Below are positions 1,404-19,172 of a stretch of DNA of 53,388 nucleotides, piece after piece. How positions within the stretch are numbered: position 1 is the stretch's first letter; the number at the start of each line of letters is the position of its first letter. The notes beneath the pieces are model-generated. The model did no database searches and was not told the DNA's origin. It was given only the letters and a program-made list of their open reading frames with translations. The DNA lies in the NCBI GenBank assembly GCA_963575745.1, contig CAUYUJ010000320.1, positions 62,001 to 115,388 of the forward strand. Direction: 5' to 3'. The translations under genes and the position numbers were made by a program. Source of the stretch: Prorocentrum cordatum. Taxonomy: Eukaryota.

Positions 1404-1817
1404 TTTAGTCGGGCCTGTCCCCACACAGGCGGAATTTGGACGAACAAATTGTGAAACAAAGCAAAAGCTATCCCCAAAGCCTCAAACATACCCAGAACAA
1501 ATCGTCCCCAGACTATTTTTTTACAATCTTTGAGTATTCCTCCTGTAGAGGCCTCCTAGATGGGGTCGGAGTAGATGGGGTCGGAGGATCTCGCCGCATC
1601 GCTGATACATCGGCGATGCATCGCCGATGCATCGGCGATGCATCGGCGATGCACTGGAGACGTCGGCGATGCATCGGCGACGTCGGCGTGGATGAAATTG
1701 GGCCCCAAATCGAGCCGCATCGCCGATGCATCGGCGATGCCGCGCGATCCTCCGACCCCATCTACTCCGACCCCATCTAGGAGGCCTAGATCCTGTGGGA
1801 CGACAGGCCCGACGTAA
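1404..1817. mobile_element. MITE family D copy (TIR TTAAGTCGGGC-type)
   Basis: GTCGGGCCTGTC…GACAGGCCCGAC termini; hosts the family C element. Confidence 0.7.
1546..1790. mobile_element. Foldback MITE (family C) nested in a family D element
   Basis: TIRs of about 45 bp (GGCCTCCTAGATGGGGTCGGAGTAGATGGGGTCGGAGGATC), internal CATCGGCGATG repeats, TSD TCCTG. Confidence 0.85.
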
Positions 1818-1939
1818 GGCGATGGCCTCGCCCCGAGCCGCCGCTGTCGACGGCCCCGCGCGCGGCCCCGCGAGGGGCCCCGGAGGCCGAAGCAGGCGGC
1901 AAAAGAGAAAGCCCGCCTCGAATTTTGCTCGAGAGGCGC

Positions 1940-2140
1940 CAGAGGTCCCCAGACCTCCTGGCGTCGTGAAAAAATCACGACGGGAGGTTTTCCGTTATTT
2001 TCAGCCTCCGGGGGCCCTCGCCGGGCCTCGGGGCCGTCAAAAAACAACTCAGGATGCAAAACCGGCCCCAGGGAAGGGGTCCAGACTTCTGGGGGTCGAA
2101 GTTGTGAAAAAATCACGACGTCGGGGGTCTGGGTCTGGGT
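1940..2140. repeat. Dispersed repeat of about 190 bp (copies at about 2380-2570 and 18280-18465)
   Basis: Shared GGGCCTCGGG…AACTCAGGATG…GGTCCAGAC core. Confidence 0.65.
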
Positions 2141-2678
2141 CCGATGTCTTGCCTCTTCCATGCGGTTCCCTCGGAAGTCTCCTGTCCCAGCGCTGGCAGA
2201 AAATCCCCCCCGACAGCAACCGCCCCGACGCGCGAGGCCTTTAGTAAACGCGCCCAACGAAGGAATCGAACAGGGCAAGGCTGTTTAATAAACGCCCACG
2301 GCCGCTTAGTGAACGCCACTTGTCCGGTCCGGGTGGTCTTTCCTAGAAGTGCAGCCAGGCTCCTGAGAGAGGAAACGCCAACCCAGACGTCGGGCGCCTC
2401 GAACAAAAATCGAGGCGGAAGCTTTGGGTTGTTTCCGGCCTCTCGGGGCTCTCGCCGGGCCTCGGGACCGCCAAGAAACGACTCGGGATGAAAAGGCGGT
2501 CCCGGGGAAGTGGTCGGGAGGTCGGGGGCCCGTGCCTCGAAGAAGCCGACGCGTCGGATGTCTGGGAATTAATGAAGAACGAGGCCTGCGGAGCTGCCCG
2601 GGAGGCCCCCCAAGAGGCCCCCCAAGAGACCCCAGCAGGTTCTCCCAAGGGGGTGCCCGGAAGGGCTCCAGAGCGTCA

Positions 2679-2710
<32 letters not shown>

Positions 2711-2919
2711 CTCCCCTATCGGGGTCGGCGGCGCCGGCCGTAAGGACTTCCCAATGATTACCAGCCTGGAACATATCCCTATCCCTATGCTGGGCACCTC
2801 CTCATCACGGTGTCAATCTTAGGGATTCCCATATTTTTGGAAGGCGAATCCTTAAGATTGTCATCGCCTTTTGGCGTGTCAATCTTAGGGATAGGGGTAA
2901 TTACGTTCGATAAAATGAG

Positions 2920-4118
2920 GAACGAACGAACGAACGAAGCTGCCGTCGCCGGGAAGGGCCGGCGCCCCTGCAAGGGAGGCAGGCGCGCCCGTAGCGCGCT
3001 GGCCCTCTGAGAGGACCGGGAACGTGCTGCAACATACGCATGGCGATTCAGTGCCTGTGCGGGGTAGGAGGAGACAAGAGAGGCAAGAGGGGCGCAGACG
3101 GATCACGAATGTGGAAAATATGGTGCGTCTCGTCACCTCCATGAGGAATTGCACGTACTCGCTCTCGTATTCAGACCATACTTATGTGCCTTGCGCTGCA
3201 GATACCCACGACTCCCAATGCTTCTCACGAGCGAACAAAACCAAGTCATCCTCCCATCTTGAAAACCGCCCTGGGCGCGAACGGATCGGACAGGCGGCCG
3301 TTCCTCTGGATTGTTCCCTCCACCAGACGTTGTCTCTCCACTCGGTGGTCCTCCGGGCCCACCGGTCCACAGCCACGTTTGCAGTCTTCCCTGCCCAACG
3401 CCACTTTACTTTGAGATAACTGTCTTCCCAACATTGACAACCGGCTTGCTTGGCCGTGTTTTCCGCGGCATGGGTAGACCGCTTGATCCAACTGATGTAC
3501 TCTTCGTCGGGTCGTCGCCTTGGGCCCACCATCCGGCGTAGCATTATTCTCCGTGTGCTTCACAAGCGCCTTTTCTGCGTCACAGTAAGTTTCCACGACT
3601 CTGCACACCGCAAGACAATCTTGGAAACAGTCGCTTCGATTCGAATAGTTTAAGCCGTTTGATCTGCGAGGCGTCCCGTTTCATCAACATGTCATTGAGG
3701 CTGGAGAACTTGGCCCATCCTTCTCTTAGTCTGTGCTCAAACTCCGCGGTGGTATTCCCGTTCATTGTGATCATTGTGCCAAGCACTTTGAAGCCTTCGT
3801 TGCAACTGCATAGCGGATATCTATCGCCCGCCAATTTGACATGCTCCCCAGAGTACACTTCTCTTCCCACGCATTGTATGCTGCACTTCCCAGAATTCAG
3901 TTGAATCGCAAGTTCTTGTTTGATAGAAGCAAGCATTTTCCCGAACACGCGTTTTGACTTAGCCACGATGGTCGTGTCGGCGGCGAACATGGCGTACGTC
4001 ATCCTGTTCTCCCCCAGCACGTTGCTCCCGATGATGGTGCCGTAGCCTCTCTTCTCCCACTCCTCCTTCAAGGGCTTCATGGCTTCTCTGATTGTGTTGG
4101 CGATAAGAGCCGGAGACA
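2920..4118 (-). mobile_element. 5'-truncated RTE-like LINE (RT C-terminal half, 3' UTR, (TTCG)n tail)
   Basis: Motifs LSPALI, MFAADTTIVA (FADD), LNSGKC, FKVLG..I, and KWRWAGK..RW..W..RGR..RW in the RTE-type C-terminus. Frameshifted; short tandem-repeat tail at 2920-2938. Confidence 0.8.
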
Positions 4119-4297
4119 GTGGTAAAATGAAGAGCGAAGCCCTTTGCTGGCACCAGAAGAGCCGCCGGCGCACGAGGAGGGCAGGAGGAGCGACCACGCA
4201 GCGACGATGGGGGAGCCGCGGGCCCCCCTGCCGAGGCAGGAGCGGTCGCTGCCGCAGCGCGCTGGCTGCACGCACAGCAGGAGCCCGACCACAAGAG

Positions 4298-4462
4298 TGA
4301 AGGGGCCCCGGGACACAGAAATAAGTACACACAAAGAAAAGGATTCCCCATATTTTCCCATAGTTTCTGAGTTTCTGTTCTCCTCCCCCCAATTCCCATA
4401 TTTCCCCATATTTTCCTGGGGGTCGACGATTAATGGTGTCTGTGCGTTTCTTTCTCTCCTGA
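4298..4462. mobile_element. Short element family B, copy 1
   Basis: TGAAGGGG…CTCCTGA with TSD AAGAG. Confidence 0.85.
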
Positions 4463-4784
4463 AAGAGGCCCAACCCTCAAGACCCCGGGGCGTCCATGGC
4501 CCTTTGATGTGGGGGCGCCACGCTCTCCACGGCAAAGCCATCGGAGCCCAAGAAGCCCAGGGCACCCTCTGGAGGCAAGCGGGGTGTTCTTTCGGCGCGT
4601 GTCTCCGCTGTACGTTGGAGGTCTGGGAAGCTGTCGACCCCGCGCAGGGGAGGAGGAGGAGGAGGAGGAGGAGGAGGAGGAGGAGGAGGAGGAGGAGGAG
4701 GAGGAAGAGAGCTGTCTCGATCAAGCATGTGCTTAGAGAGCGGCTCACATCATTCACCTGACCCACCTCCCCTTATTTCTTCCC

Positions 4785-5660
4785 ATGGTTGTTCTTGCTC
4801 GTCTCCGGTGGATTCAGCGCCAGGTGGCCACTCGTCGTGTCCACATTTCCATCGGCGAGGCCACGGACCCCGACAAGATGAAGTACAAGATAGTGCTGTC
4901 TCCGGAGCGTGCGCCTCCTGGTCCTGCACACTCGCTGGTGGTCAGCTCGGTCATCGAAGAACTCATCAACACCCTCGGCACTCTGTCTGCCACAGACCGT
5001 GGTCATGCACATAGCGACGGTACTTCAGTCGTGCAGATCTGGCTGGACAAACCACAGTTTCGTCGCGATGATCCTGTTCTCCCTCCGCGTGCCGAAGGCG
5101 ACGATGGGGCTGGTCCTGCGCCCACTGCGCGGCCGAAGCACGAGCAGCCAGAAGAGGAACTCGGCGAGCGCTCAACACTTCGGCGCCGGCGCGGCACGCC
5201 CGACCCGAGCAGAGCTCCCTCTGTAGGGGCAAGCTCGTGCCACTCGGTGAAGAGGCCTGCTGCTACTACTGTTGCTGTGGAGGACGTGAAGACCGCCGCA
5301 GACGAGGAGACCGGAGCAGCTGCTGTAGCCGCGCCGCCTTCTGCGCCAGCGCACTCTTCCGCTCCAGCGCAGCAGGCCTCTGAGCCGAGTCCAGCGCCGG
5401 AAACGCCCGAGGCCATGCCTTCGCCAGCGGTGACAGAGGCAGGAACTTTCATGCAGCAGCCCCCCGCGGTCTCTGGGCATGCGCCTGCTGGCAACGTGGT
5501 GGATATGCTGGCCCTGGCTCGACAGCTCCAGTCATTGGGACAACAGTTGCCACCCCTGCTGCCTCAAAGCTGGGAGATGGCACGCGACCCTGTGAGCGGC
5601 ATGACGTACTTCTTCAACCGTGTGACAAGTGAGTCTAGTGGGCTGCCCCCTCACGTGTAG
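4785..5660 (+). CDS. Intronless 291-aa ORF with a C-terminal WW-like domain; possible retrogene
   Basis: Open ATG-TAG frame in non-repetitive sequence. The C-terminus LPQSWEMARDPVSGMTYFFNRVTSESSGLPP fits the WW consensus except that the second Trp is Gly. Confidence 0.65.
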   Translation: MVVLARLRWIQRQVATRRVHISIGEATDPDKMKYKIVLSPERAPPGPAHSLVVSSVIEELINTLGTLSATDRGHAHSDGTSVVQIWLDKPQFRRDDPVLPPRAEGDDGAGPAPTARPKHEQPEEELGERSTLRRRRGTPDPSRAPSVGASSCHSVKRPAATTVAVEDVKTAADEETGAAAVAAPPSAPAHSSAPAQQASEPSPAPETPEAMPSPAVTEAGTFMQQPPAVSGHAPAGNVVDMLALARQLQSLGQQLPPLLPQSWEMARDPVSGMTYFFNRVTSESSGLPPHV

Positions 5661-7249
5661 CGTGCACCATGTCTCAGCGTAGCATTTCGCATTTTGCAAC
5701 GCGCACCCTGTCAGCCAGGCACAATTCGAGAGGAAGCCATTCGACGCACGCTTGAAGCTTCTGCGCACATATTGGCCAGGTAGCTGTGCAGATTGGTCGG
5801 CATCGGCAACTGGTCGCGGCTCGTAACGTGACCAAACGATTAGAAAAAAAAAAACGGAAGCGACACGATTTTTCTTCTTTTTTTAACAAAACAAGTTTTC
5901 CGGGGGGGCGCGTAGGACACGATTAGGCGCCGCGACGCCGGACGCTTTGCGCCCAGGGCGGCGGCGAAGCGGGCGGCGGAGCCGGCGGCGGGGGGGAGGA
6001 GGGGGAGAGGGGAAGAGAGCGGGGGAGGGGGAGGCCGGAGGTGGTTCCCCTCGCCGCCCCTCCTCCCCTCTCCTCTCCGCCTTCCCTCTCCCCCCTCCTC
6101 CCCTCTCCTCCCCGCCTTCTCTCTCCCCCTGACAGGCGGCGTCAGGCAGCCCGCCGGTCCCGCGACCGCACGCGCCTCCTCGGTCCAAGAAACGCACCCC
6201 TCACGCGGACCACGGGGTCTTAGCGAACAGGGGGTTGGGACGGGCAGTCACGACCCTCGCCCCCCTCCCGCCCTCAGGAGTGGAGGGGAGGGGGGTCGTG
6301 ACCTTCGCCCCTGCCCGTGGGAGCCCCCATTCGCCCGCGAACAGGGGGTTGGTACGAACGTTCACGACCCCTCTCCCCCCCAGCCGCGGCCGCGGCTGAG
6401 GGGAGGCGGGGTCGTGACCATCCGCACGTGGGAGCCCCCATTCGCGGACCCTTCCCGTTCCCTTTCCGCCCCCTCTCCTCCCTTCCCTCCCTCCTCCCCT
6501 TCCCCTCCCTAGCCCCCCTTCCCCGCCCCCTCCCCATCCCCTCCCCTCGCAGAGAGGGCGGCGCCTTTGTCAAGCGAGCGCAGCCAGCCAGGGGAACTGC
6601 GCTCAAATGAGCGCTCGGCGGCGAGCGGCCAGGGGTACGGAAGAGGGTGGGGCGGGCGGGGCGAGGGTAGCGGAAGGACACGATTAAACAAAAAGTTTCC
6701 GGGCGAAAATCCTAATCGGGGCGTTCCTTGTTTCTGGGGGAGGGGGGGGGCGGGGAGGGAAGGTCGCATTTTTTTAATCATGTGGTCACATTAAATCCTG
6801 TGTCTGGCCCCCGCTCGGCCCTGGAGGGCCCGGCGCTGTGTCATGGACACCCTGAACCCAAGCTCCCCCGATGCGGGCCCTCCTCCTCTTCTTCTCTCTC
6901 CCTCCCTTGCGTCCCCCCTCTTGAGTCTTGAGTGGGTGCTTGGGCTCTGGCCTCGCCCTCTCTGCGTGGCTCGTGGCCTGGGGAGTCCTCGTCGCCGCCG
7001 TCTCCATCCCGCTGAATCTCTGCCCAGTCCCACCGAGGCTTCAACCCTCCGCCTTAATGAGGAGAAGAAGAAGAGGAGGAGGAGGAGGAGGGGGAGGAGG
7101 GGGAGGAGGAGGGGGAGGAGGGGGAAGAGAGAGAGGAGGAGGGAGGAGGAGGAGGAGGAGAGGAGAATGGAGGAGGAGGAGGAGGAGGAGGAGGAGGAGG
7201 AGGAAAAGGAGGAAGTCTGGGGCGCAGGCGACTCCGCTCGTGCGGCCAC

Positions 7250-7360: not shown

Positions 7361-10300
7361 CTCGTCTTGGGTCGGGCATATCCTCCTACACGGGCGTCGT
7401 CTTCGGGCGGGCCTCGTCCTCGGTCGTCTTCGGTCGGGCGGGCCTCGTCCTGGGTCGGATCTTGGAATCAAAACGAAGCGTAGTTTCTGTGGAGGTTCTG
7501 AGTACAAATGAAACGTAGGTGCTCTCTAAATTGAACAAAATCTCGAAAAACAGAAAACTCGAAAAATATGGAGCATGAGAAGAATATAAAAGAACAGAGC
7601 GATCGTCCCCAGATTATCTGTGGAGACTGTTTTTGGAATCTTCCTCATGTAGAGGGCCATGCCCGACTTCGGCCTCGTCCAGGCGCCAGAGCGCGCGCAG
7701 CTCCGCGGGCCCCGGGGCCTCGCCCGCGCAGAGGGCGGCGGCGGCCGCGGCGTCCGCGGCCAGCAGGTCTCGCGGGCGGGGGGACCCTGAGACCCTGGCG
7801 CGACTGAAGTTTTCTCTCGAGCCGGGCGTTGTCGCTCAGCTGCGGGCACCCGGGGCCCTCACAGATCGATCCGGCTCGAAAGCTGACGCAGAAAGGTGGG
7901 GTCCGGGGCTCCGGGCGCGATTCGCTGGTCGGGTGCGGCCAAGAGGGGGGCGTCCAAGAGGGGGGGGCGCAAATCATGGCCGGCGGCATGTGCGCGGCCC
8001 AGGGGGGGAGGCGGGGACGCATGGAAGCAAGAAGGGGCGACATGAAATCTGGGGAAAGATCCTGGCCCTCGCCACGAGATCCTTTCCCCCCCACCTGGTC
8101 GTCACCCCCCTCTCTGCCGTCCCCGAGCGTACGATGCTGCATTTTTCTTGTGCGACGTCGGGTCTCAAGGCAGGGCTGAACCTAACCGGTGTTTTTCGTT
8201 CTCGTTTTGTCTTTGCTTTTCCCTCGTGCTGTCTTCAGTCCACCTCCTGCAGCAGAAACGAAGTCGAAACGAGCAACGGCCCACGACATCGCCCAAACAC
8301 CGTGTAGGTCCAGCCCTGTCTCAAGGAACACACGGTCGGGGACGTCTGCTCGGCGTGTCTGAAGGGACCCCAGGACACACAAAAGAATACACACAAATAA
8401 ACAGATTCCAAATATTTTCCCATATTTTCTGGGTTTCTGTCTTCCCCCCCACTTCACATACTTTCCCATATTTTCTTGGGGATCGACGATTCATTGTGTC
8501 TGTGTGTTTTTTTACCTCCTGGGTGTCGCGGCGCGACGCGCGCCGCGCCCTGCGGCTGGGCGGCCCGTGTCGCTCCGCTGGTCCGCGCGGGCGGGGGCCC
8601 GCGCGGCGGAGGCTCTGGGCGTGGACGCCCGGGGGACGGCGCTGCACCGACCTCGCCGACGCTTACAGTCGGGGCGTTGACCTAAGGAACCCTGAAAAAG
8701 GAACGAGGCCCCCTTTTCCCCAATAAGTTAGACTTTGATCTCCGATCAAAGGCATGAGGAAAACCTGAGGCGAGCTGTGAAACACTTAAGGAACACGGAG
8801 CCCCTCCCCACCGAAAAGGGTTCCTTCTTCAGGGCCCCGACTGTAGCTGCACCGATACGCAACACGCAACACGTAGCGTACTGATACGGAGCTCAACACG
8901 CAGGCTGAAACCGTGGTCCAATACGTGGAGCCAACACGCAACGTATCGACACGGACGCCTTGAACACGGGACGTGCTGCGTTTCAGAACGGGCGCATCGA
9001 GGCAACTAAGCGCAGACGTGCTCCAGCGGATCGTCGCGCGGACTTCTGTCCGTGCAAAACCCCGAGCTGGCAAGCGGCAAGCGAAGCGAATGTCACGTAG
9101 ACTTTTTTTATAGTCTGCCTTCCTGGCCCAAGAAAAAAAGATCCGCACGAGATTCACCTCGGAGTCCAGAACGCGAAGTTCTCCAGGACACTCGGGGCCC
9201 GCCCTATCGTTTCCGACTGAAGTCCGCTCTGCGATGTTGGCGCCATTGGAAGTGGACAGCGCGGCGCGCCGCAGCGCTGGGGGGGGGCCAGATGAAGAGG
9301 CCCCAGGACACACAAATAAATACACACAAATAAAAGGATTCCCCATATGTTCCCATATGTTCTGGGTTCTTTGTCTTCCCCCCCACTTCCCATATTTTCC
9401 CATATTTTCAGGGAACCGACGATCAATTGTGTCTGTGTGCTTTTTCCCTCCTGACCAGAACCGGCGGCGCGACACGCCAGGCTTCAGTTCCCGACCGGAT
9501 CCGTAGCGGCGGCCTCGCGGGCGGGGCCCCCGGGGCCGCGACCCCGCGGACACGGGGCGCCGCTCCGCGGAGGCCCCGCGCCGAGCGTGCCCGCACGACC
9601 GCGCAGATCCGCGGGATCGCGCCCCGGAAGCCAGACCGCGAGGGCGCAGATACGGATCGATTTCGGTCGGGCACGTCCTCTCCTACAGGCGGAACTTGGT
9701 AGACAAATGAATACTCGAGTCGCAAAAAAAAGTACGGGAAGGAAATCGCCCCCGCGCATTACTTTGTGGCAGCGTTCCTCCTGTAGAGGGACATGCTCGA
9801 CTTAAGAAAAGCTGTTCGCCGCCCGTGGAGGCCGCTGGGAAAGAGCAGGTCGTCCCAGAGCAGGCAGAAGTCGGCGCTCCGCAGGGACTCGGCGCAGAAG
9901 CGGCGCCGCAGGGCGGCGAAGTTCTGGGCGGCGCCGTCGCGCGCGAGCGCGAGCTGGCCAATGGACGCCCGGGCCCGCTCGAACTCCCGGGGCATCCTCG
10001 CCCGGAAGGCATCCGCGGGGTCCTCTCGAAGGGCAAAAACCTTCATGAGCGTGATTTCTCCGATTTTTGGCGCTCCGCGCGGATTTCCTGGATCCGCGCC
10101 GGGCACCCCCCCCGGCGGCGCCTCCGGCGCCGCGCGCCAGGGAGGGGGGTCCAGCGCCGATCCAAGAACTCCGCGCGGACCTCCTGTGGAACCATGCTTT
10201 TGCAGCTGTGTTGTTCCTCTATCCTCGATGGCCTCCAGCGTCGCTTCCATCAGTTTCTGCTTCGCCGCCAGCTCCTTCGGTGGCAACTCATGGGAGCCTC

Positions 10301-13300
10301 CCATACCATCTTGTTGGCTCTTGCGAGTCGACACACATCGACGCGAATCGACGCTAAGTCCACGCTCATCGACGCTAGATCGACGCTCATCGACACTAAA
10401 TCGGCGCAAGCGCACGCCGAAGGCTCCAGTGAGTTCTTTCTAAAAGAAGAAAGCGGTATGAACATAAACTTTCGACGCCCCGCGCGGTGCGCCTATAGTG
10501 TATGTTGACGTAGCTTTCCCTTCTTCGAATTGATTTGTCACCGAAAGCTCCTCCCGAGAAGCCCTGCCCCCGAGCCTTCTGAGCCGGCCTGCCCCCTGAC
10601 GAGCCCTGCCAGTGGGCCCTGCCCCCTGTCGGGAGCGGCCAAGAGGGGAGTGTCCAAGAGGGGGGGGGTGCAAATCATGACCGGCGGCATATGCGCGGCC
10701 CAGCGGGGGGGCCAGGGACGTGATGAAACAAGAAGAGGCGCCCTGAGATCTGGGCAGATATCATGGCCCCCGCCATGATATCCACCCCCCCCCTAGTCAT
10801 CACCCCCCTCTTTTCCGCCCCCGACCCTGAGAAGCCCTGCCAGAGAAACGTTCCCGGGCCTTCTGAGGGGGCCCTGCCCCTCCTCACCTCCCCCCTGCAA
10901 GGCCCAGCGCCCCTCGAACGGGGACTCCACTGACGGGCACTTTGGCCAGTGACCCGGCGAACCCAGCCCTCACCGCTGTGGACAACGCTGAAGTGCCAGA
11001 AAGAGGCCCTCAAAAGGGCAGCTTTCGGCAACTTCCCGAAGTACCCGTTGGTATTATGTCGGGCGTGCCCCCCTATACAGGGGGATTTTCGACGAAACAT
11101 ATTTAAAATACCCCAAACATGCAGCAAACATAGCAAAAAATGCTCAAAAAATAGTCCCCCGACTATTTTTGGACTCTTTCTTTATATTTGTGGGGTACTT
11201 TTTATTTCTCGTCGGAAATCCCCACGTAGGGGGACAGGCCCGACCTAACGTTAGTACCCATTACGGTGCCGCTGAAAGGCTCCTCCTCCTCCTCTTAACG
11301 TTAGTACCCATTACGGTGCCGCTGAAAGGCTGTAGGGGGACAGGCCCGACTTAACGTCAGTTAGGGGGCCACATGCGAACCCTACCCCTACCCACCACGA
11401 TTTCTGAGGGGGAGGGTGGGGTTCACTTCGCTCGGGAGCTCCCCCCCCACTCAGAAATCGTGGGGGGTAGGGGTAGGGTTCGCATGTGGCCCCCTATTAA
11501 TACCCATTACGGTGATCTGTTGCCGGAAGCTCCTCCTCCAGCGACGCCACGTGCTGCTCGCAGTCCTCCAGGCTCACCCGCACGGCCTTCCGCACGGCGG
11601 CCCCGCCGTCCGGGCCCTCGACGCGGCGCCTCGCGACGTTGCACAGGCACGGCCGCAGCTCCTCGCAGAGCTGCGCGGCCTGCTCCCCGAAGAAGCGGAA
11701 GAAGACCTCGAAGAGGAGGTGCCGGACGTCGTCGCCTGGAGCACGGAGGGAGACGCCGGTGCTACACAACCCTCTGATGGGCCTGTTTTCCACCACCACC
11801 ACCATAAGTTGGAGGGGGGAATAAGGTGGAGGATGAGGATGAGGATGAGGATGAGGATGAGGAGGAGGATGATGATGATGATGATGATGAGGAGGAGGAG
11901 GAGGCGGAGGAGGAGGAGGAGGAGGAGGAGGAGGAGGAGGAGTAGGAGGACCCCCTCTCCCTTCAACTTATGATGGTGGTGGTGGTGGAAAACAGGCCCA
12001 TCAACCCTCGGCAACAAGCTACCTCAAAAGCGTCGGCCACGCCCCTCCAGTGTCGGGGCGCCCCTTCAGTGTCGGCACGCCCGGAGGCGTCGTGGCCGGG
12101 GGGCATTCGATCGTTTCAGGGTCAAGCCGAGAGTTCGATGATGATCGACATTGAGCGAGGCGCGCCAAGAAGTTCGGCGTGTTCATCGCCAGCCACTCCA
12201 GGAACACACACAAGCTCAAGTTGGATGTGCAGCACATGTTTGAGGTTAAATGTGGCGAGGATGCTGCGCGCTTCTGTTGGAGGGGCGCGCCCAAGCCGAA
12301 CCTGTAGCGCAGCACCGTGCATTGCCTCGTCTGGCTACCGAGCGGTATGGCCAGACAGCGCCAGCCACGGAGCTTATACTGTAAGATGTCCGAGCGTGCG
12401 CATCGCCCCATATACTGCATATGGCATACATGTGTGCGTGTTTAGAATGCACATATATATATATATATATATATATGTATAGCTAGTGTTATGTGTAACC
12501 ATGTGTGTATGTATATATATGTGTATATATATGCATTCTATATATACACTGCATTTCCATACCTAGGCTCTGCCTAGAAGGGTTCTTACTCGGAGGCTTA
12601 CCCATCGGTCGGTCGGAAGAAGTAGGTAGAAACATGAAGTAGGAAGGCGTTGGAAATAGATTGGGTTTCCGCACGCCTCCTGAAGAGGAAGGAAGAAGGA
12701 AAACCACTCGACTCTTGAAGTAGGAAGGCGCTGAAAGTAGATTGGAATCTGGGAATCCAAAAATACCTACTTTCAACGACCGATGGGTAAAGGGCCGGGC
12801 AATGGGGCACGCCCCGGGCGGTCCCCCCGGCATCCGCCCCGCGGTTCCCCCAGTTGCGCCCCCTGGGTTCACCCAGCTTAGCTTAGCTAAGCTTTGCTTA
12901 GCTTTGCCTAGCCTGGCTTAGCTTAGCTTAGCATAGCTTAGCTTATCCCATCTTAGCTTATCTTAGCTTAACTAGCTCTGCACAGCCTAGCTTAGCTTAG
13001 CTTAGCTTAGCTGATCTCATCTTAGCTTAGTTTAGCTTAGCTTAGCTTATCTCATGTTAGCTTAGCTTAGCTTAGCTTTGCCTAGCCTAGCCTGGCTTAG
13101 CTTAGCTCAACTCAGCTTAGCCTCGCCTAGCTTAGCTTACCTCAGCTTAGCTTTAGCATAGCTTAGCTTACCTTAACTTAGCGCAACGCAGCATAGCGCA
13201 GCGCAGCATTAGCACAGCATAGCATAGCATAGCCAAGCATAGCATAGCATAGCTCAGCACAACATAGCGTAGCGCAGCATAGCATAGCATAGCATAGCAT

Positions 13301-16300
13301 ACCATGACATTGCTTAGCACAGCACAACGCAGCATAGCAAATCATAGCATAGCACAGCACAGCATAGCATAGCATAGCATATAATATAATAGCATAGCGC
13401 AGCATAGCATAGCATAGGCATAGCCTAGCCTAGATGTAGATGCTGCTGTCCTAAATGCTCCAACTCCTAGGTAGGGTCGCACTGGGATAATGATATGTTT
13501 TGGGGGGGCCCCTCGCCTTCGTCATCGTCCCTGACGGCATCGAGCAGCCCCAGGGACCACAGCTCGAACCCACCCGCCTGGCCGAGCTCCGTGCCCTCGT
13601 TCAGGATGTTGCCCGCGGCGAGCACCAGCCCGAGGAGGGGCAGCAGGGCCGCGGAGCGCAGGAAGGCCTCCGACACCGCCGCCAGGTCGTCGAGCATCTG
13701 CGAGGCCGCCAGGACGCGGTCCTGGTAGGCCCGCACAAAGGCCCAGCACTCCATGCGCAGAAGCACAAGCAACGCCATCAGCATACACTCGTGGCGCTCC
13801 GCGCGGAGTTCTCGGAGCCGCGATGGCCCCCCCCCCCCTCCCCGGCGCGCGGAGCGCGCCAGGGGCGGCGCCGGAGGCGCCGCCGATGGGGGGCCCCAGC
13901 GCGGATCCAGGAAGTCCGCGCGGAGCGCCAGAAGATTATGCTCACGCCGTTTCTTCTTCTTCGGATGCGCGCAGGGTAGGCAGCCACGCCGCCGACGGCC
14001 CACACGTACTCCTCCAGCGGGGCCAGGGGGGCTTGCGGCTGCTCGTCCAGTGCTTTGCGGATGAGCTCCAGCTGTGCTGCCTTGCCGGCCGCATGCTGGC
14101 GCACCAGCTCCAGCTCGCCTGGCGTGAGGAGCTGGTCGTCCAGGCCGGCCAGCGCCAGCGCCACGTCGCGCGCGGGCGGCAGCCGCTTCAGCTGCGGCTC
14201 GTGCTCCAGCCGCGTCCGGCTGTCAAGCACACACAGCCGCCTGGAAGTCTCGCTGCTCTGCCGGACGAGCTGGGGAGGCTTCTGCGCGGGGAGGTCGCCG
14301 CGGGCGCGAGGCTCCTGTGCGGGGGCCTTCGCGTAGCGGCCCTCCAGGGCGGGCACCGGCAGAGCGGCGTCGTCCCCGACACGGTCCCAGATCGTCGCCC
14401 CTGGTCAGGGACCAGGAAACAAACGACACCACCCCACCTACGGCCCCACGCGGCTTGGCGTATGCCAGGGTACCTGGCGTGGGCTCTTGCGTGGTAGGCG
14501 CTACGGCGCCCGATGGGCCGTAGCGCAACATGGAGGGCCGCAGGTGGGGCTAGAGGAACAGAAAACGGCATCAACATAAACTTTTGGTGGTCCGCACGGA
14601 TTTCTTGAATCCGCGCTGGACCCCCTCCCTGGAGCGCCGAGCGCGCCAGGGGCGGCGCCGCCCGGGGGGCCCAGCGCGCATCAAAAGATATCTGCGCGGA
14701 GCGCCAAAAGTTTATGTGTACTGCCGTTCTTTGTTCTTCGATCGGTGGAGTGGTTTGTTTTTTGGTCGAGGCCTGGGGGCATGTCCTTACCGAGCACCAG
14801 CCGCTTCCACCACAGGGGCTTCATCGGCTGGGCCGGCGTCACCTTGGGCCTCTCGGGCCCGCCCGCGCCGGGCCCCCCTGCGCCAGGCTTCCCCTTATCT
14901 CGGAGGGCGCGGGCCACACACGCCGAATGCAGCGATCCTGGCCAGGCCAGGATCGGCGTTCGCGGGCAACGACAGGGGGGGGACATGCATATAGGGAAAG
15001 ATGCATCGACCCCCAATCGCCCATTGATCGGCGATAGGGGCCCGATTGCCCCACCCCGCCCAGGAAGGCACGGATTCACTATCGGGGGCCTGTCGCCGAT
15101 CTGTCGGCGATGTATCGCCGATTCCAGGTCGATGCATCCCCCCTATGCCTATCCCCCCTATATCGTTGCCCCTCAGGTGTAGACATGGCATCGGGAGGAG
15201 CCAAAACGTACCCTCGGGACGACGCGCCCCCAGCTCGGCCTCGCAGCGGCTACGGCTCTGGCCACGGCGGGCGCCAAAAAGCCGAGCCGCTGGGCGCTCC
15301 GAGGTGGGCTCTGAGCAGGTGGGCTCTGAGCCCCCCCCACCCTCCAGGGTATGGCCAGCCCTGGGGCATGTTCGTCGGCTCGGACGAAGCGGGGGGGGAT
15401 TAGCAAAAGAGGGAGTGGCGCGAGTCCGCCCGCGGAGCTGGCTTCCCCGGCAGCTGCCGGCACCGGCAGGCGCCGGCTCGTCATGAAGAGCCGCCCAGCG
15501 GCGCGGCCGAAACCAGCCGCGCGCGGCAGATCTCGCGACGCCCCTTCCCCTTCAGGCCTCGGAACAGAAATAGCGAACACGCACGCCGCATTCATCGGCC
15601 AACGCCTCCCCCTCCCCCCCATGTCCAAAGTCGGCGGTGGATCTGACGAGCTGCACTCCGACCGCAGGCCCCCCCGCGCGCGCCAACTCTGAGTTTGGGG
15701 GAGCGGGGGAGTGTCCACGAATTGTTTCCCGCTGCCGTACCCCCAGTGTCACCACAAGTTGGGGGGGAGGGGGTCCTGTGCTCCACCACCGTCACCACAA
15801 GTTGGAGGGGGAGGGGGTCCTCCTCCTCCTCCTCCTCCTCCTCCTCCTCCTCCTCCACCCCCCCCTCGTCCGACCCGAGTGCCCCCATGTCCCCTGGTCC
15901 CCGGCAGCGCGGCCGCGACCTGCGCGCGACGCCGCAGGGGGGCCGCGGGTGCCGGGCGCGCGCCACGGGTGGGGCGGATAGTATGGGATGCCAGGCGGCA
16001 CCTCCCCCCGAGGTCGAGGGACCCCAGCAGTGGGCCCGCACCTCAAGTAAGAGGCCAAACCCAGAAGAGGTCGGCGATGCGGCGCGCGACGGCGGGCTCT
16101 CTTGCGGGAGGGGAAGGGGGGGGGGAAGCTTCCATGGGCGGAGGCTGCTCCTTAGAGGGCGCCAGCCCCTGCATCCACAGACAGGGCCCGCGCCTTCTAA
16201 GAGGCAGGGGTGCTCCTGAGAAGAACCCCCCTCTGCGCGGCAGGGGGAGGACGGGGGAAGCTTTCTCGGACTCCTTAGAGGGCGCCGGCCCTAGGTCTAC

Positions 16301-16803: not shown

Positions 16804-19172
16804 AATAATGATGATGCTGATGATACTGATTATGGCTATGATGGTGAAAATGATGATGGTGGTGATGATGATGATGATGGTGATGATGATGCTGATGATG
16901 ATGATGATCATGATGACGACAATGACGATCATGATTACGACGAAGACCGTAGCCTTTCTGGCTCAAGCCACGTGGGCTCAAGGAGCGTATGAGCCAAGCC
17001 TGCAGCCCAGCTTCGCCACAGCGCCGGGCGAGCCCGACGCCATAGCCACGAGCGCAGAGTGCGCCCTGCCCTCCGCAAGCACCGTCGGCGTCGCAGTCGT
17101 GACCCCTTGGCTCCCCCGAGGGCCACCCTCGCGTGCCACCGCCTCGCCCGCGGCCTCCCCCAAGACGAAGCCAGGACAAAGGCCAAATTCGGGCGAGGCT
17201 AACTCGAGAGATCCGACGGCACTGGAGGATGTCTCGAAGCCAGGACGAGGACACCTTCGGGCGCGAATAACTCGAGAATCTGTGAGATCCGGCGGCTCCT
17301 GGAGGATGTCTCGGGCGCCGCAGAGCCTTCCGGCCTTCCGGCACGCCCTGAGAGCATTCTGGAACGCTCTGGAACGGAGCTATCCTTGTCCCAGCCCCGT
17401 CCGGCATTGCATCATCCAGGAGTCGAAGAATGGCCAAGGCGTCGTCAAGGTGTGCACAGCATAAGAACAGGGACGCAGGCTGCCAAGACCAGGCACAAAA
17501 GAAAGCCCGTCCAGGAACGACGGGGGCAACGAAAGAACGAGAGAAACCCGACGCTCCTCGGGGGAACTATCCATCGAGGCCGGCCGAGCAAGCATCACTC
17601 CCAGGGGGGACGCGCACACGGGGCCAGCCGTCGGGCACTTGCCCGTGGAGATCCTGGATCTCCCCGTCCGATGTGCAGCCCGGCGCCCTCCGGCCTTCTG
17701 CCTCCCCTTGCCGCCGCCGCCCCCGCCCGCGCCGGCGTCGGCGGCGCCCTGCGCACCTAGGGGGCAAGCAAACCTACCTCGCTTTTGACCACCCTCGCTG
17801 CCAAGAGATACCAAGCGATGCCAAACTACAGCCTGTGCTGGTCAGGCCGCTGGACGAGGAGGCGTGTGGTATGACTTGGTTTTGTCTGGAAGCGAAAGCG
17901 GGGTATGTAATTCACGCTCTGAGCACCGGCGCCCGCGGGGCCGGGCGGCTTGCCCTTGCCCGTGGCGGGCGGCCCGCCCTTGGCCTTGCCCTGCCGGGCG
18001 GCGCGCGCACAGGCGGGGGGGGGCGAGGCCAGGCCCCCCCCCGTGTTTTCTGAAGGGGCCCTGGGACACACAAATAAATACACACAAATAAAATGATTCC
18101 CCATATTTCCCCATATTTTTTGGGTTTTTGTCTTCGCCCCCACTTCCCATATTTTCGCATATTTTCTGGGAATCGACGAATAATTGTGTCTGTGTGTTTT
18201 TTCCCCTCTTGATTTTCATCGGGCAAGGGACCAATGATGGGCCGAAGGGGAAGGATGCAAGGGTAACCTTGGAACGCGTGACACCCCCTCGAGCAGTGAA
18301 AAAAGCACGACAGGCGGTTTTTCTGCATGTTCGACATGCGGGGGCCCTTACGGGGCCTCAGGGCCGCCCAAAACCAACTCAGGATGAGAAAGCGGTCCCT
18401 GGGAATGGGTCCAGACCTCTGCGGGCCGACGCAATGAAAATTCATGACGTCGGGGATCTGGGAAAGTTGCTCATCCCTACTGTGCGGGTTGACTGTATTG
18501 GAATCGAAGTCATAAGAGGTGCCATGAAATCTGAGGATGTATCATGGCCCCAGCCATGATATCATCCCCCCCATGGTCATCACCCCCCTCTCGCCGCCAT
18601 CCCCGACTCAGGGCGGAAGCGCGAAGGGGCGGGCTCCTGAGAGAGCCGGGGGCGTCTCAGAGATTGCTCTTACCTCGAGCAACGACCGTCACCTTGGGGA
18701 GGGGTGCGCAGACGGTCGGTCTGCTGAAACGAGGAACGCTACAAGAGGAGCGAAACCCCAGTTTAGCGCCAACAGCGCCTGGGTGCACGAGTAGAAACAG
18801 AAAAGACGACCTAAACAAACTTTTGGCGCTCCAGGCGGATTTCTTGGATCTGCGCTGGACACCCCCTCCCTGGCGCGCGCAGCGCGCCAAGGGCGGCGCA
18901 GGAGGCGCCGCCAGGAGGCCCAGCGCGGATCCAACAACTCCGCGCGGAACGCCAAAAGTTTCTGTTTAGGGCTCTTTCCCTTCTTCGAACGAGGAGGGCT
19001 AGAGGAGTAACCACGGAATGACCCCCGTCTCAAGGCTCCCGGCCCGTGCGCGCGCCGCCAGCCTTCCCCGCGCCAGCCGGCGTCGGGGCCGCCGCCGCAG
19101 CAGCTGCGCTGGCCTCGGGCGCCTGCGCCGGCGGCGCGGCGGACGTCCCGTCCGATTCGGCGGGCTCCATGC
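7250..19172 (-). CDS. Formin (FH1-like + FH2) multi-exon gene, partial model; 5' and 3' ends not resolved
   Basis: Joined exons give FH2 motifs in the correct order: PMKPLWWKRL (lasso), ATIWDRV, VLDSRT..LKRLP, LEEYVWAVGGVAAYPARMECWAF, LLGLVLAAGNILNEGTELGQAGGFELWSLGLLDAVRD (GNxxN/GF motif), RVSLEDCEQHVASLEEEL, DAFRARMPREFERA, DFCLLWDDLL. Exon phases agree at every modelled junction. Confidence 0.9.
7367..7671. mobile_element. MITE family D copy forming a formin intron
   Basis: TIR GTCGGGCAT/ATGCCCGAC; perfect 8-bp TSD GCCTCGTC at 7359-7366 and 7672-7679. Confidence 0.8.
7674..7768 (-). CDS. Formin post-FH2 exon (DLLAADAAAAAALCAGEAPGPAELRALWRLDE)
   Basis: Phase-1 join gives FPS-DLL; GAG|GC donor; protein-like composition. 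Confidence 0.65.
8360..8522. mobile_element. Short element family B, copy 2
   Basis: Homologous to copy 1; TSD GTGTC. Confidence 0.85.
8666..8843. mobile_element. Tc1/mariner-type MITE
   Basis: TA|CAGTCGGGGC…GCCCCGACTG|TA. Confidence 0.75.
9293..9454. mobile_element. Short element family B, copy 3
   Basis: Homologous to copy 1; TSD CCAGA. Confidence 0.85.
9662..9805. mobile_element. MITE family D copy
   Basis: GTCGGGCACGTCC…CTACAGG / CCTGTAGAGGGACATGCTCGAC inverted ends. Confidence 0.7.
9833..10022 (-). CDS. Formin FH2 C-terminal exon (DPADAF…LLWDDLLFPS)
   Basis: FH2 C-terminal helix pattern DxF…M..F..A…F..L…F…DF..LW; GAG|G acceptor and G|GC donor. Confidence 0.85.
10026..10221. mobile_element. 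MITE family A copy forming a formin intron (Introner-like)
   Basis: Palindromic core TGGCGCTCCGCGCGGA…TCCGCGCGGA; 5-bp TSD TCCTC at 10021-10025 and 10222-10226. Confidence 0.85.
10224..10274 (-). CDS. Formin FH2 mini-exon (ELAAKQKLMEATLEAIE)
   Basis: AAG|G acceptor and GAG|GA donor; 51 nt; bridges LEE and DPADAF exactly. Confidence 0.75.
10441..10528. mobile_element. Internally deleted MITE family A copy
   Basis: Only the two arms remain (TAAAAG…CTTCGA). Confidence 0.55.
10629..10824. mobile_element. MITE family E (other copies at 7929-8126 and, partially, about 18500-18607)
   Basis: TCGGG…CCCGA termini, TSD CCCTG, homologous internal sequence among copies. Confidence 0.75.
11054..11248. 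mobile_element. MITE family D copy
   Basis: TIRs plus an 8-bp TSD with one mismatch (CGTTGGTA/CGTTAGTA). Confidence 0.75.
11362..11496. mobile_element. Near-perfect hairpin MITE (family G)
   Basis: TAGGGGGCCACATGCGAACCCTACCCCTACCC… mirrored at the right end; degenerate 5-bp TSD TCAGT/TTAAT. Confidence 0.75.
11533..11735 (-). CDS. Formin FH2 exon (DDVRHLLFEV…VASLEE)
   Basis: CAG|G acceptor and GAG|GA donor; 203 nt, correct phase; FH2 post region. Confidence 0.85.
11775..12003. mobile_element. Foldback MITE (family F) carrying a (GAT/GAG)n microsatellite
   Basis: TIR TGATGGGCCTGTTTTCCACCACCACCACCAT…; flanked by the direct repeat ACCCTC. Confidence 0.85.
12877..13430. repeat. Compound pentanucleotide microsatellite: (GCTTA)n then (GCATA)n
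   Basis: Direct inspection; the unit switches near 13180. Confidence 0.95.
13517..13752 (-). CDS. Formin FH2 exon, part b (ECWAF…GNILNEGTELGQAGGF…DDDE)
   Basis: Contains the hallmark FH2 GNxxN…GF motif; AAG|GC donor. Confidence 0.93.
13758..13964. mobile_element. MITE family A copy inserted in a formin FH2 exon
   Basis: Long imperfect TIRs; TSD ATGCG at 13753-13757 and 13965-13969. Confidence 0.88.
13965..14400 (-). CDS. Formin FH2 exon, part a (ATIWDRV…AYPAR)
   Basis: CAG|G acceptor; TIW, LE..Y, VLDS, LxxLD, LxxxE and YxxR motifs. Ends at the 212-bp MITE insertion. Confidence 0.9.
14551..14741. mobile_element. MITE family A copy nested in a formin intron
   Basis: Same TIRs (TAGAGG…CTTCGA) and palindromic core; TSD not recognisable. 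Confidence 0.75.
14773..14893 (-). CDS. Formin exon, start of FH2 (…PERPKVTPAQPMKPLWWKRLVLGKDMPP)
   Basis: KPLWW matches the FH2 lasso KxLxW motif. CAG|GC donor in phase 1 fits the next exon. Confidence 0.85.
14960..15175. mobile_element. MITE family H
   Basis: Imperfect TIRs GGGCAACGA…GATGCATCGACC; TSD GGCGT/GGTGT. Confidence 0.7.
16100..16495. repeat. Degenerate tandem repeat of about 120-130 bp, three copies
   Basis: ACAGACAAGGCCCGCGCCTTC recurs at about 16177, 16299 and 16433. Confidence 0.8.
16650..16940. repeat. (GAT)n microsatellite
   Basis: Direct inspection. Confidence 0.95.
16946..16982 (+). other. Dinoflagellate spliced leader plus tandem relict SL (retroposed mRNA 5' end)
   Basis: ACCGTAGCCTTTCTGGCTCAAG matches DCCGTAGCCATTTTGGCTCAAG at 20/22. 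It is followed directly by CCACGTGGGCTCAAG, which matches the relict 15-mer CCATTTTGGCTCAAG at 12/15. Confidence 0.9.
17695..17756 (-). CDS. Formin exon, Gly-rich (GAQGAADAGAGGGGGGKGRQK)
   Basis: TAG|G acceptor and AAG|GC donor. In phase on both sides; exact 3' boundary uncertain. Confidence 0.55.
17927..17990 (-). CDS. Formin exon, FH1-like (GKAKGGPPATGKGKPPGPAGA)
   Basis: CAG|G acceptor, G|GT donor, 64 nt, in phase with the next exon. Confidence 0.65.
18051..18212. mobile_element. Short element family B, copy 4
   Basis: Homologous to copy 1; TSD TTTTC. Confidence 0.85.
18792..18988. mobile_element. MITE family A copy
   Basis: Same core; perfect TSD ACGAG at 18787-18791 and 18989-18993. 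Confidence 0.85.
19063..19172 (-). CDS. Putative formin exon (Ala/Pro-rich linker GMEPAESDG...AGAGK)
   Basis: CAG|G acceptor and AAG|GC donor. Phase 0 join to the next exon (GKAKGGPP). Low complexity, so homology support is weak. Confidence 0.45.

Follow-up and report, generated by a model that had tools for sequence, protein, structure and literature searches.

In this study, we analyzed a 53,388-nucleotide (nt) stretch of DNA from the core dinoflagellate Prorocentrum cordatum (assembly GCA_963575745.1, contig CAUYUJ010000320.1, positions 62,001 to 115,388 of the forward strand; hereafter the window), in which a short hairpin-forming transposon, referred to as family A, interrupts an exon of a formin gene within the sequence for the conserved FH2 domain. 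We found that exactly 212 nt, namely the element and one copy of its flanking repeat, were missing from transcript-like contigs, that no canonical splice sites were present at the borders of this gap, and that its removal restored the protein. Thus, it appears likely that the 212 nt are precisely removed at the RNA level from this locus in spite of the missing canonical signals. All coordinates below refer to the window, and the gene lies on its minus strand; the parts of the exon upstream and downstream of the element are called exons A and B, and three further introns of the same gene are called introns B, D and F (Table 1).

First, we examined assembled contigs across the junction. The stretch 13480-14420 was listed for 24 runs, 14 of which (7 studies) contained all or part of it; two of these 14 were on record as RNA. 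At least half of the words of this stretch were found in 13 runs, and the shares (0.50-0.75) were near its exonic fraction. Contigs from four runs of four studies, X4 (polyA RNA), X1 (recorded as 'RNA?'), X9 and X12 (both recorded as '?'), were aligned to 13440-15810. In each of the four runs, one contig joined 13752 directly to 13965, an exact skip of 212 nt, and the flanking pieces (13513-13752 and 13965-14399) showed no mismatch to the window. The depth at the joint (5.5-8.4) was comparable to that of the exons (4.7-9). The bridging rule asked for 31 letters on each side of the joint; the shorter side contained 240 letters in X1, 55 in X9 and 31 in X12. One 1138-nt contig of X1 crossed the junction without any branch. 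Intron B was also skipped by the contigs of three runs (X1, X9 and X12), and the depth was zero across its unique part (14400-14559) in all four; thus, the contigs resemble processed transcripts. The uncovered stretch 14900-15800 was uninformative on transcription. A preliminary description of the locus had left it undecided whether the insertion is a non-canonical intron or kills the gene, and had proposed a search for transcripts across 13700-14000. Transcript-like contigs across it are present and carry the exact skip in all four runs, whereas the joint 13945/13749, expected from a canonical GT..AG intron, was absent from the joints of their contigs, although contigs drop rare variants and minor use of this junction could therefore escape. 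These observations favor the intron over the gene-killing insertion.

Second, the anatomy of the missing sequence is that of a miniature inverted-repeat transposon (MITE). On the minus strand, the motif CGCAT is found twice, at 13969-13965 and 13757-13753, with a period of 212 nt. The insertion and its period had been recognized before, and both hold; the proposed target duplication, CGCAT, needs to be amended, since the preceding G is also repeated. The direct repeat is thus 6 nt long (GCGCAT), and the 5-nt target duplication might be either GCGCA or CGCAT. Folded as RNA, the element is predicted to form one hairpin from end to end, with -151.1 kcal/mol and z = -8.36, a stability that none of 200 dinucleotide shuffles reached. 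In addition to its 75-nt terminal inverted repeats, the element is short (207 nt), is present within 53 kb as five copies or fragments, three of which (CGCAT, CTCGT and GAGGA) are flanked by duplications of a fixed length, and has no transposase gene, because a body of 207 nt is too short for a gene. An Rfam scan of 13600-14100 with E values up to 1 gave no match. The window is rich in G+C (55-69% per 2 kb), and the genome of P. cordatum is reported to contain 59.7% G+C (PMC10666404).

Third, the borders of the gap lack the signals of known dinoflagellate introns, which are described as having GT, GC or GA (GH) donors and AG acceptors (PMC10666404; Roy et al., 10.1101/2020.10.14.339549). Because of the 6-nt repeat, seven placements of the cut give an identical mRNA, and their borders are GC..CT, CG..TG, GC..GC, CA..CG, AT..GC, TC..CA and CC..AT. 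None of the seven combined a GH donor with AG, and none had an AG acceptor at all, as had been noted previously. Introns B, D and F served as a control within the gene, and each of them had exactly one GH..AG/G placement (the slash marks the joint). The canonical alternative mentioned in the preliminary description does exist: a GT donor at 13945 and an AG at 13750-13749 would define a 197-nt in-frame intron, by which ME is replaced by IRRRRNG and five residues are added. We also considered nested canonical splicing in two steps. The last AG of the element lies at 13789-13788 and the next one at 13750-13749 within the exon; with no AG between 13788 and 13750, GH..AG steps cannot end at any of the seven positions. 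U12-type (AT-AC) introns have AT..AC or GT..AG borders and an extended donor consensus of the ATATCC type. The sole placement that begins with AT is AT..GC, with the donor ATCCGAAG, and neither this donor nor its GC end fits that class, which was rejected.

Fourth, comparison with homologous proteins revealed that the exact excision agrees with the conserved protein sequence. A protein search with exon B against 1.84 billion representatives returned 88 matches, five of which were fetched; four of the five (P0003, P0004, P0006 and P0007) were homologues with 45-55% identity over exon B. All four were colinear across the junction without a gap, having R-[LIVM]-[DEN]-C-W where exact excision gives R-M-E-C-W. 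Therefore, removal of exactly 212 nt restores the ancestral coding sequence, in agreement with what had been claimed from the FH2 consensus. The restored open frame reads ...AYPAR/MECWAF..., whereas a retained element leads to a stop at 13778 and to truncation within FH2. Membership in the formins was supported by a match of exon B to Pfam FH2 (PF02181; E 1.3e-13; 51.3 bits, where 34.8 is the cut-off; positions 164-241 of the 372 in the profile). Exon A alone gave no Pfam FH2 match, but tblastn aligned it with dinoflagellate formins at E values from 1.6e-12 to 8.6e-20. Its 145 amino acids returned no match in protein searches, and the exact 27-nt exon A pattern had no match in metagenome contigs.

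The public gene model of this locus carries a trace of the same gap. The best match of exon B, P0001 (201 amino acids), is CAK0789895.1, an 'unnamed protein product [Prorocentrum cordatum]' that is listed in UniRef as an FH2 domain-containing protein. Within 5.8 billion clusters it is the only near-identical protein, in a cluster with a single member from one contig, and it maps to the window at 100% identity: residues 1-45 lie at 14094-13960, where exon A is read in the wrong frame, residues 46-122 at 13748-13513 and residues 123-201 at 11736-11500. The model thus implies a 211-nt intron with the borders GA(13959)..AG(13749), one base short of the 212-nt gap, by which the true N-terminal frame is lost. 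According to the genome paper (PMC10666404), the annotation pipeline accepted GT, GC or GA donors with AG acceptors only. CAK0789895.1 therefore gives the impression that a transcript with a 212-nt gap was forced onto the locus, and it is out of frame because the pipeline allowed nothing but GH-AG. At its other end, the model continues past a likely GT donor at ~11508 to a stop.

On the basis of these results, we propose the following course of events. A non-autonomous family A transposon would have inserted into the conserved FH2 exon and duplicated the target CGCAT; the pre-mRNA would be transcribed through the element; and 212 nt, made up of the element and one copy of the duplication, would be cut out precisely from the RNA, by a relaxed spliceosome or by a separate machinery, so that the ancestral frame is regained. 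The most likely aid would be the predicted hairpin of the arms (about -150 kcal/mol), which could set the exon ends and the two copies of the direct repeat side by side. We infer that removal takes place on RNA from this very locus, and that structure, not sequence signals, may define the cut.

Several observations weigh against this proposal. The only run that is definitely RNA, X4, has 25 letters beyond the joint (31 with the six ambiguous ones), which is borderline or short under the bridging rule, and the record type of the other three runs is uncertain. The evidence consists of assembled contigs instead of raw reads, and none of the four runs is a DNA run. No contig of the four runs spanned an unspliced boundary between exon and element, and thus transcription through the element was not directly seen. 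The published annotation of P. cordatum lists only GT, GC or GA donors with AG acceptors (PMC10666404), although its pipeline could report nothing else. A screen of the window for further cases from sequence alone (4-6-nt direct repeats, inverted ends and frame-fusing removal) yielded 258 candidates, mostly microsatellites and chance GC-rich open frames, so that it produced only noise; the case described here is a single locus. The hairpin of the exon copy (z = -8.3) is weaker than those of two non-genic copies (-12.7 and -13.4), which means that it is no better preserved in the gene. Finally, the argument for the age of the insertion, given below, is indirect.

Among the rival explanations, the most serious one is that the insertion kills this copy of the gene, and that the transcripts originate from DNA without the element, in a paralogue, in a recent duplicate or in a subpopulation of the cells. 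Contigs cannot separate spliced RNA from the transcript of an uninterrupted gene, and the lack of unspliced boundary contigs would be expected here. Inverted-repeat elements are mobile, the perfect target duplication is compatible with a young insertion, very many duplicated genes are described in P. cordatum (PMC10666404), and the public assembly is incomplete, at 4.15 Gb (PMC10666404) versus about 4.75 Gbp in the preprint abstract. On the other hand, no second copy of the formin exons was found within the window, and the exon is carried by one protein on one contig among the 5.8 billion clusters. Moreover, the public model, which was derived from transcripts of the same strain, bears the signature of a 212-nt gap at this very locus. 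The age of the insertion also bears on this question. The element core (13830-13885) had a depth of 1500-6500 in the four runs, derived from many other copies, while no contig piece of these runs (longest pieces kept) reached 90% identity to the element over a length greater than 75 nt. The copies in the window are also only 69-80% alike. The exon copy thus appears to lack close relatives among expressed copies and is probably an old insertion. The divergence of the arms is a poor clock, because an element may pass imperfect arms on to its copies. In a dead copy, decay of the exons would be expected to accompany an old insertion, whereas about 800 nt of exons in the window are identical to the contigs of four studies. 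Taken together, we regard a second, uninterrupted copy as unlikely, with roughly one chance in several of being the source of the transcripts.

Another explanation is a laboratory or assembly artefact, in which reverse transcriptase switched templates across the base of the hairpin via the 6-nt repeat, while the true mRNA retains the element and is broken. A hairpin of -151 kcal/mol with a flanking direct repeat and no splice signals provides classic conditions for such an event, which has reportedly been described by Cocquet and co-workers in 2006 and by Houseley and Tollervey in 2010. However, the joined form was the main or only form in all four runs and had the depth of the exons, and the X1 contig is unbranched through the junction; template switching is therefore unlikely to account for it. 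The restored frame fits all four homologues, where a retained element would truncate the gene within FH2, and, by reasoning only, libraries of fragmented RNA, the usual kind in short-read RNA-seq, should abound in boundaries between exon and element if the element were retained. We consider this explanation very improbable. Even less probable is canonical splicing at GT(13945)..AG(13749) or at the GA(13959)..AG(13749) of the public model as the main form: both site pairs are present, the former is in frame and minor use might be lost from contigs, but neither junction occurred among the joints of the four runs, GT..AG inserts its five residues into a motif that is colinear in all homologues, and GA..AG shifts the frame.

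The features of the locus are summarized in Table 1.

Table 1. Coordinates of the formin gene, its introns and the family A copies in the window.
Feature	Position	Strand	Evidence or details
Family A element body (MITE), 207 nt, without an open reading frame of its own	13758..13964	minus	sequence missing from transcripts
Direct repeat GCGCAT, upstream copy	13965..13970	minus	six letters fit either side of the contig joint
Direct repeat GCGCAT, downstream copy	13753..13758	minus	
Terminal inverted repeat, 5' arm (gene strand)	13888..13962	minus	75 nt, 77% complementary to 3' arm
Terminal inverted repeat, 3' arm (gene strand)	13760..13834	minus	element ends pair in minimum-energy fold
Exon encoding FH2 start (MKPLWW...)	14772..14896	minus	contigs of X9 and X12; tblastn with P0006
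Intron B, 372 nt, repeat CCAGG, one GC..AG/G placement	14400..14771	minus	skipped in X1, X9 and X12
Exon A, upstream of the element	13971..14399	minus	contig pieces 13965-14399 with 0 mismatches; tblastn to dinoflagellate formins
Exon B, FH2 core, downstream of the element	13513..13752	minus	Pfam FH2; contigs with 0 mismatches in 4/4 runs
Intron D, 1781 nt, repeat AGGCGA, one GC..AG/G placement	11732..13512	minus	contigs end at 13513
Next exon (DVRHLLFEVFF...)	11500..11731	minus	tblastn with P0001 (100%) and homologues
Intron F, family A copy, 201-nt period, repeat GAGGA, one GA..AG/G placement	10021..10226	minus	homologue colinearity only
Family A copy nested inside a larger element (intron B)	14551-14741		no target duplication recognised
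Family A copy	18792-18988 (18787-18993 with flanking repeat)		target duplication CTCGT
Family A copy, opposite orientation (intron F)	10026-10221		target duplication GAGGA
Family A internal-deletion derivative, 87 nt, both ends kept, core lost	10444-10530		no recognisable duplication

With regard to the family itself, blastn revealed four further copies or fragments in the window with 69-80% identity to the element in the exon (~10065-10179, 10444-10530, 14563-14740 and 18817-18987; the extents in Table 1 are those of the alignment). The consensus ends of the family are TCGAAGAAG...TTCTA, and its target duplication is 5 nt long. Cutting out the copy at 18787-18993 restored no convincing frame on either strand, and we therefore judge it to be probably non-coding. 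The 87-nt derivative adjoins a 10/21-nt tandem repeat at 10328-10407. In the copy of intron F, which has a usable GA..AG, the ends are unpaired in the predicted fold, with 47 cross pairs and decayed terminal pairing, whereas the ends of the exon copy, which has no splice signals, are still paired, with 64 cross pairs; pairing is better still in the non-genic copies, and the comparison should be seen as an anecdote, not a test. A candidate compensatory change at the tips (C...G in the exon copy, T...A in the four others) was dropped, since the true ends are ambiguous owing to the 6-nt repeat.

Intron B is composite, consisting of an outer inverted-repeat element (ends GACCAaaAAACAAACcAC and GACCAggAAACAAACgAC, duplication CCAGG) that carries the nested family A copy. 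The far side of intron D is supported by the public model and the homologues only, and this intron contains a pentanucleotide microsatellite of ~560 nt at 12875-13433 (AGCTT, then AGCAT units). Intron F sits exactly where the homologues continue (...AIE/DPADAF...). In the exon that encodes the start of FH2, GTAAGG at 14790 is donor-like, yet it is exonic in the contigs. The match of the X9 and X12 contigs stops at 14896, and a further 91-117 letters match nowhere in 13440-15810; thus, the next upstream intron is longer than ~900 nt. Its acceptor side reads ...CCGAGAT/AAGGGG, where an AG/AT placement would need a 2-nt repeat.

Outside the gene, a 163-nt direct repeat (89% identical; 9293-9454 and 18051-18212, 8.76 kb apart) flanks most of the formin locus. 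Both of its copies contain the same small 14-nt tandem repeat, and it may represent another mobile-element family. Between 34400 and 45400, we observed dense, mutually similar repeats (75-98% identical) in units of several hundred nt, with a strong skew of A over T at 36-40 kb, which look like a satellite or an array of a tandemly amplified element.

To place the locus among known systems, we compared it with several classes of unusual introns. The closest likeness, which had already been suggested in the preliminary description, is to the introners of the parasite Amoebophrya (strains A25 and A120; Farhat et al. 2021, PMC7789003), for which RNA-supported introns without GT-AG are reported. 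The likeness in anatomy (inverted repeat, direct repeat and no GT-AG) was borne out, whereas the host is a core dinoflagellate. As described for Amoebophrya (PMC7789003), inverted repeats at the two ends pair into a hairpin by which the exon borders are brought together (a structure that is only predicted here), direct repeats, 3-5 nt long, extend across the borders and make the position of the cut ambiguous, and the elements form repeated families akin to MITEs, with a typical length of ~240 nt in A120. The P. cordatum locus shares non-GT-AG borders supported by RNA (here by contigs only) as well as the inverted and direct repeats at the ends. On the other hand, its arms are 75 nt long versus 8-20 nt in Amoebophrya, its ends begin with TCGAAG where the A120 families begin with TAT, and its host is free-living whereas Amoebophrya belongs to the parasitic Syndiniales (PMC7789003). 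In Amoebophrya, non-canonical introns are reported to account for more than 60% of all introns, and U1 small nuclear RNA is reported as not found (PMC7789003).

Within dinoflagellates, Roy et al. (10.1101/2020.10.14.339549) described introner-like elements in Polarella glacialis and Symbiodinium, including class 12 with a 5-nt duplication. Like family A, these are inverted-repeat transposons with a 5-nt target duplication, and they become introns on insertion. In that description, a GH donor and an AG acceptor have to come from the duplication or the ends of the element, and this holds for introns B, D and F. Intron B obeys the rule by a duplication of the form NNAGG plus the first C of the element, giving GC..AG, and intron F by a duplication of the form NAGGH, giving GA..AG. 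The copy with CGCAT supplies neither site, yet it is missing from the transcripts. Similarly, in the IRIB sequences of dinoflagellates (Mendez et al. 2015, PMC5032977), a border repeat of 2-11 nt is kept once in the mRNA, as it is here; however, those repeats are described as always including the AG/G of a spliceosomal site, which GCGCAT does not. The nonconventional introns of Euglena and other euglenids are reported to have no conserved GT-AG, a stable structure that unites the junctions, short direct repeats that make the cut ambiguous and a suspected MITE origin, and in Euglena to make up ~72% of all introns (PMC6221363, PMC12501133). The P. cordatum locus combines non-canonical borders with a predicted structure that joins the ends, although the euglenids are an unrelated lineage (Euglenozoa). 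A full-text literature search found no hairpin introns without AG in Prorocentrum or other core dinoflagellates, with many subscription papers outside its coverage.

A broader idea is that core dinoflagellates, too, remove hairpin transposons from pre-mRNA without GT/GC/GA..AG, with the inverted repeat and the target duplication as guides. We put this forward tentatively, as a possibility that is somewhat less probable than its opposite. The share of AGG acceptors is 79.7% in the P. cordatum models versus 93-97% in other free-living species of the same table (PMC10666404), and this low value could be a trace of signal-independent removal.

If removal at the RNA level is true, the locus would be a natural experiment with copies of one transposon family in one gene, in which one copy has an AGG-type duplication and the other has no splice signal, and both are missing from the message (the first as judged by homology only). 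It would also extend signal-free intron removal of the Amoebophrya type to a bloom-forming core dinoflagellate, and the machinery would become approachable in a culturable alga. Errors like that of CAK0789895.1 may be common in the P. cordatum annotation and in those of other dinoflagellates, and, if a signal-independent pathway exists, annotations that allow only GH-AG would mis-model a whole class of introns. Finally, such a pathway would make insertions of this kind into exons harmless from the outset, which would help to explain the spread of introners.

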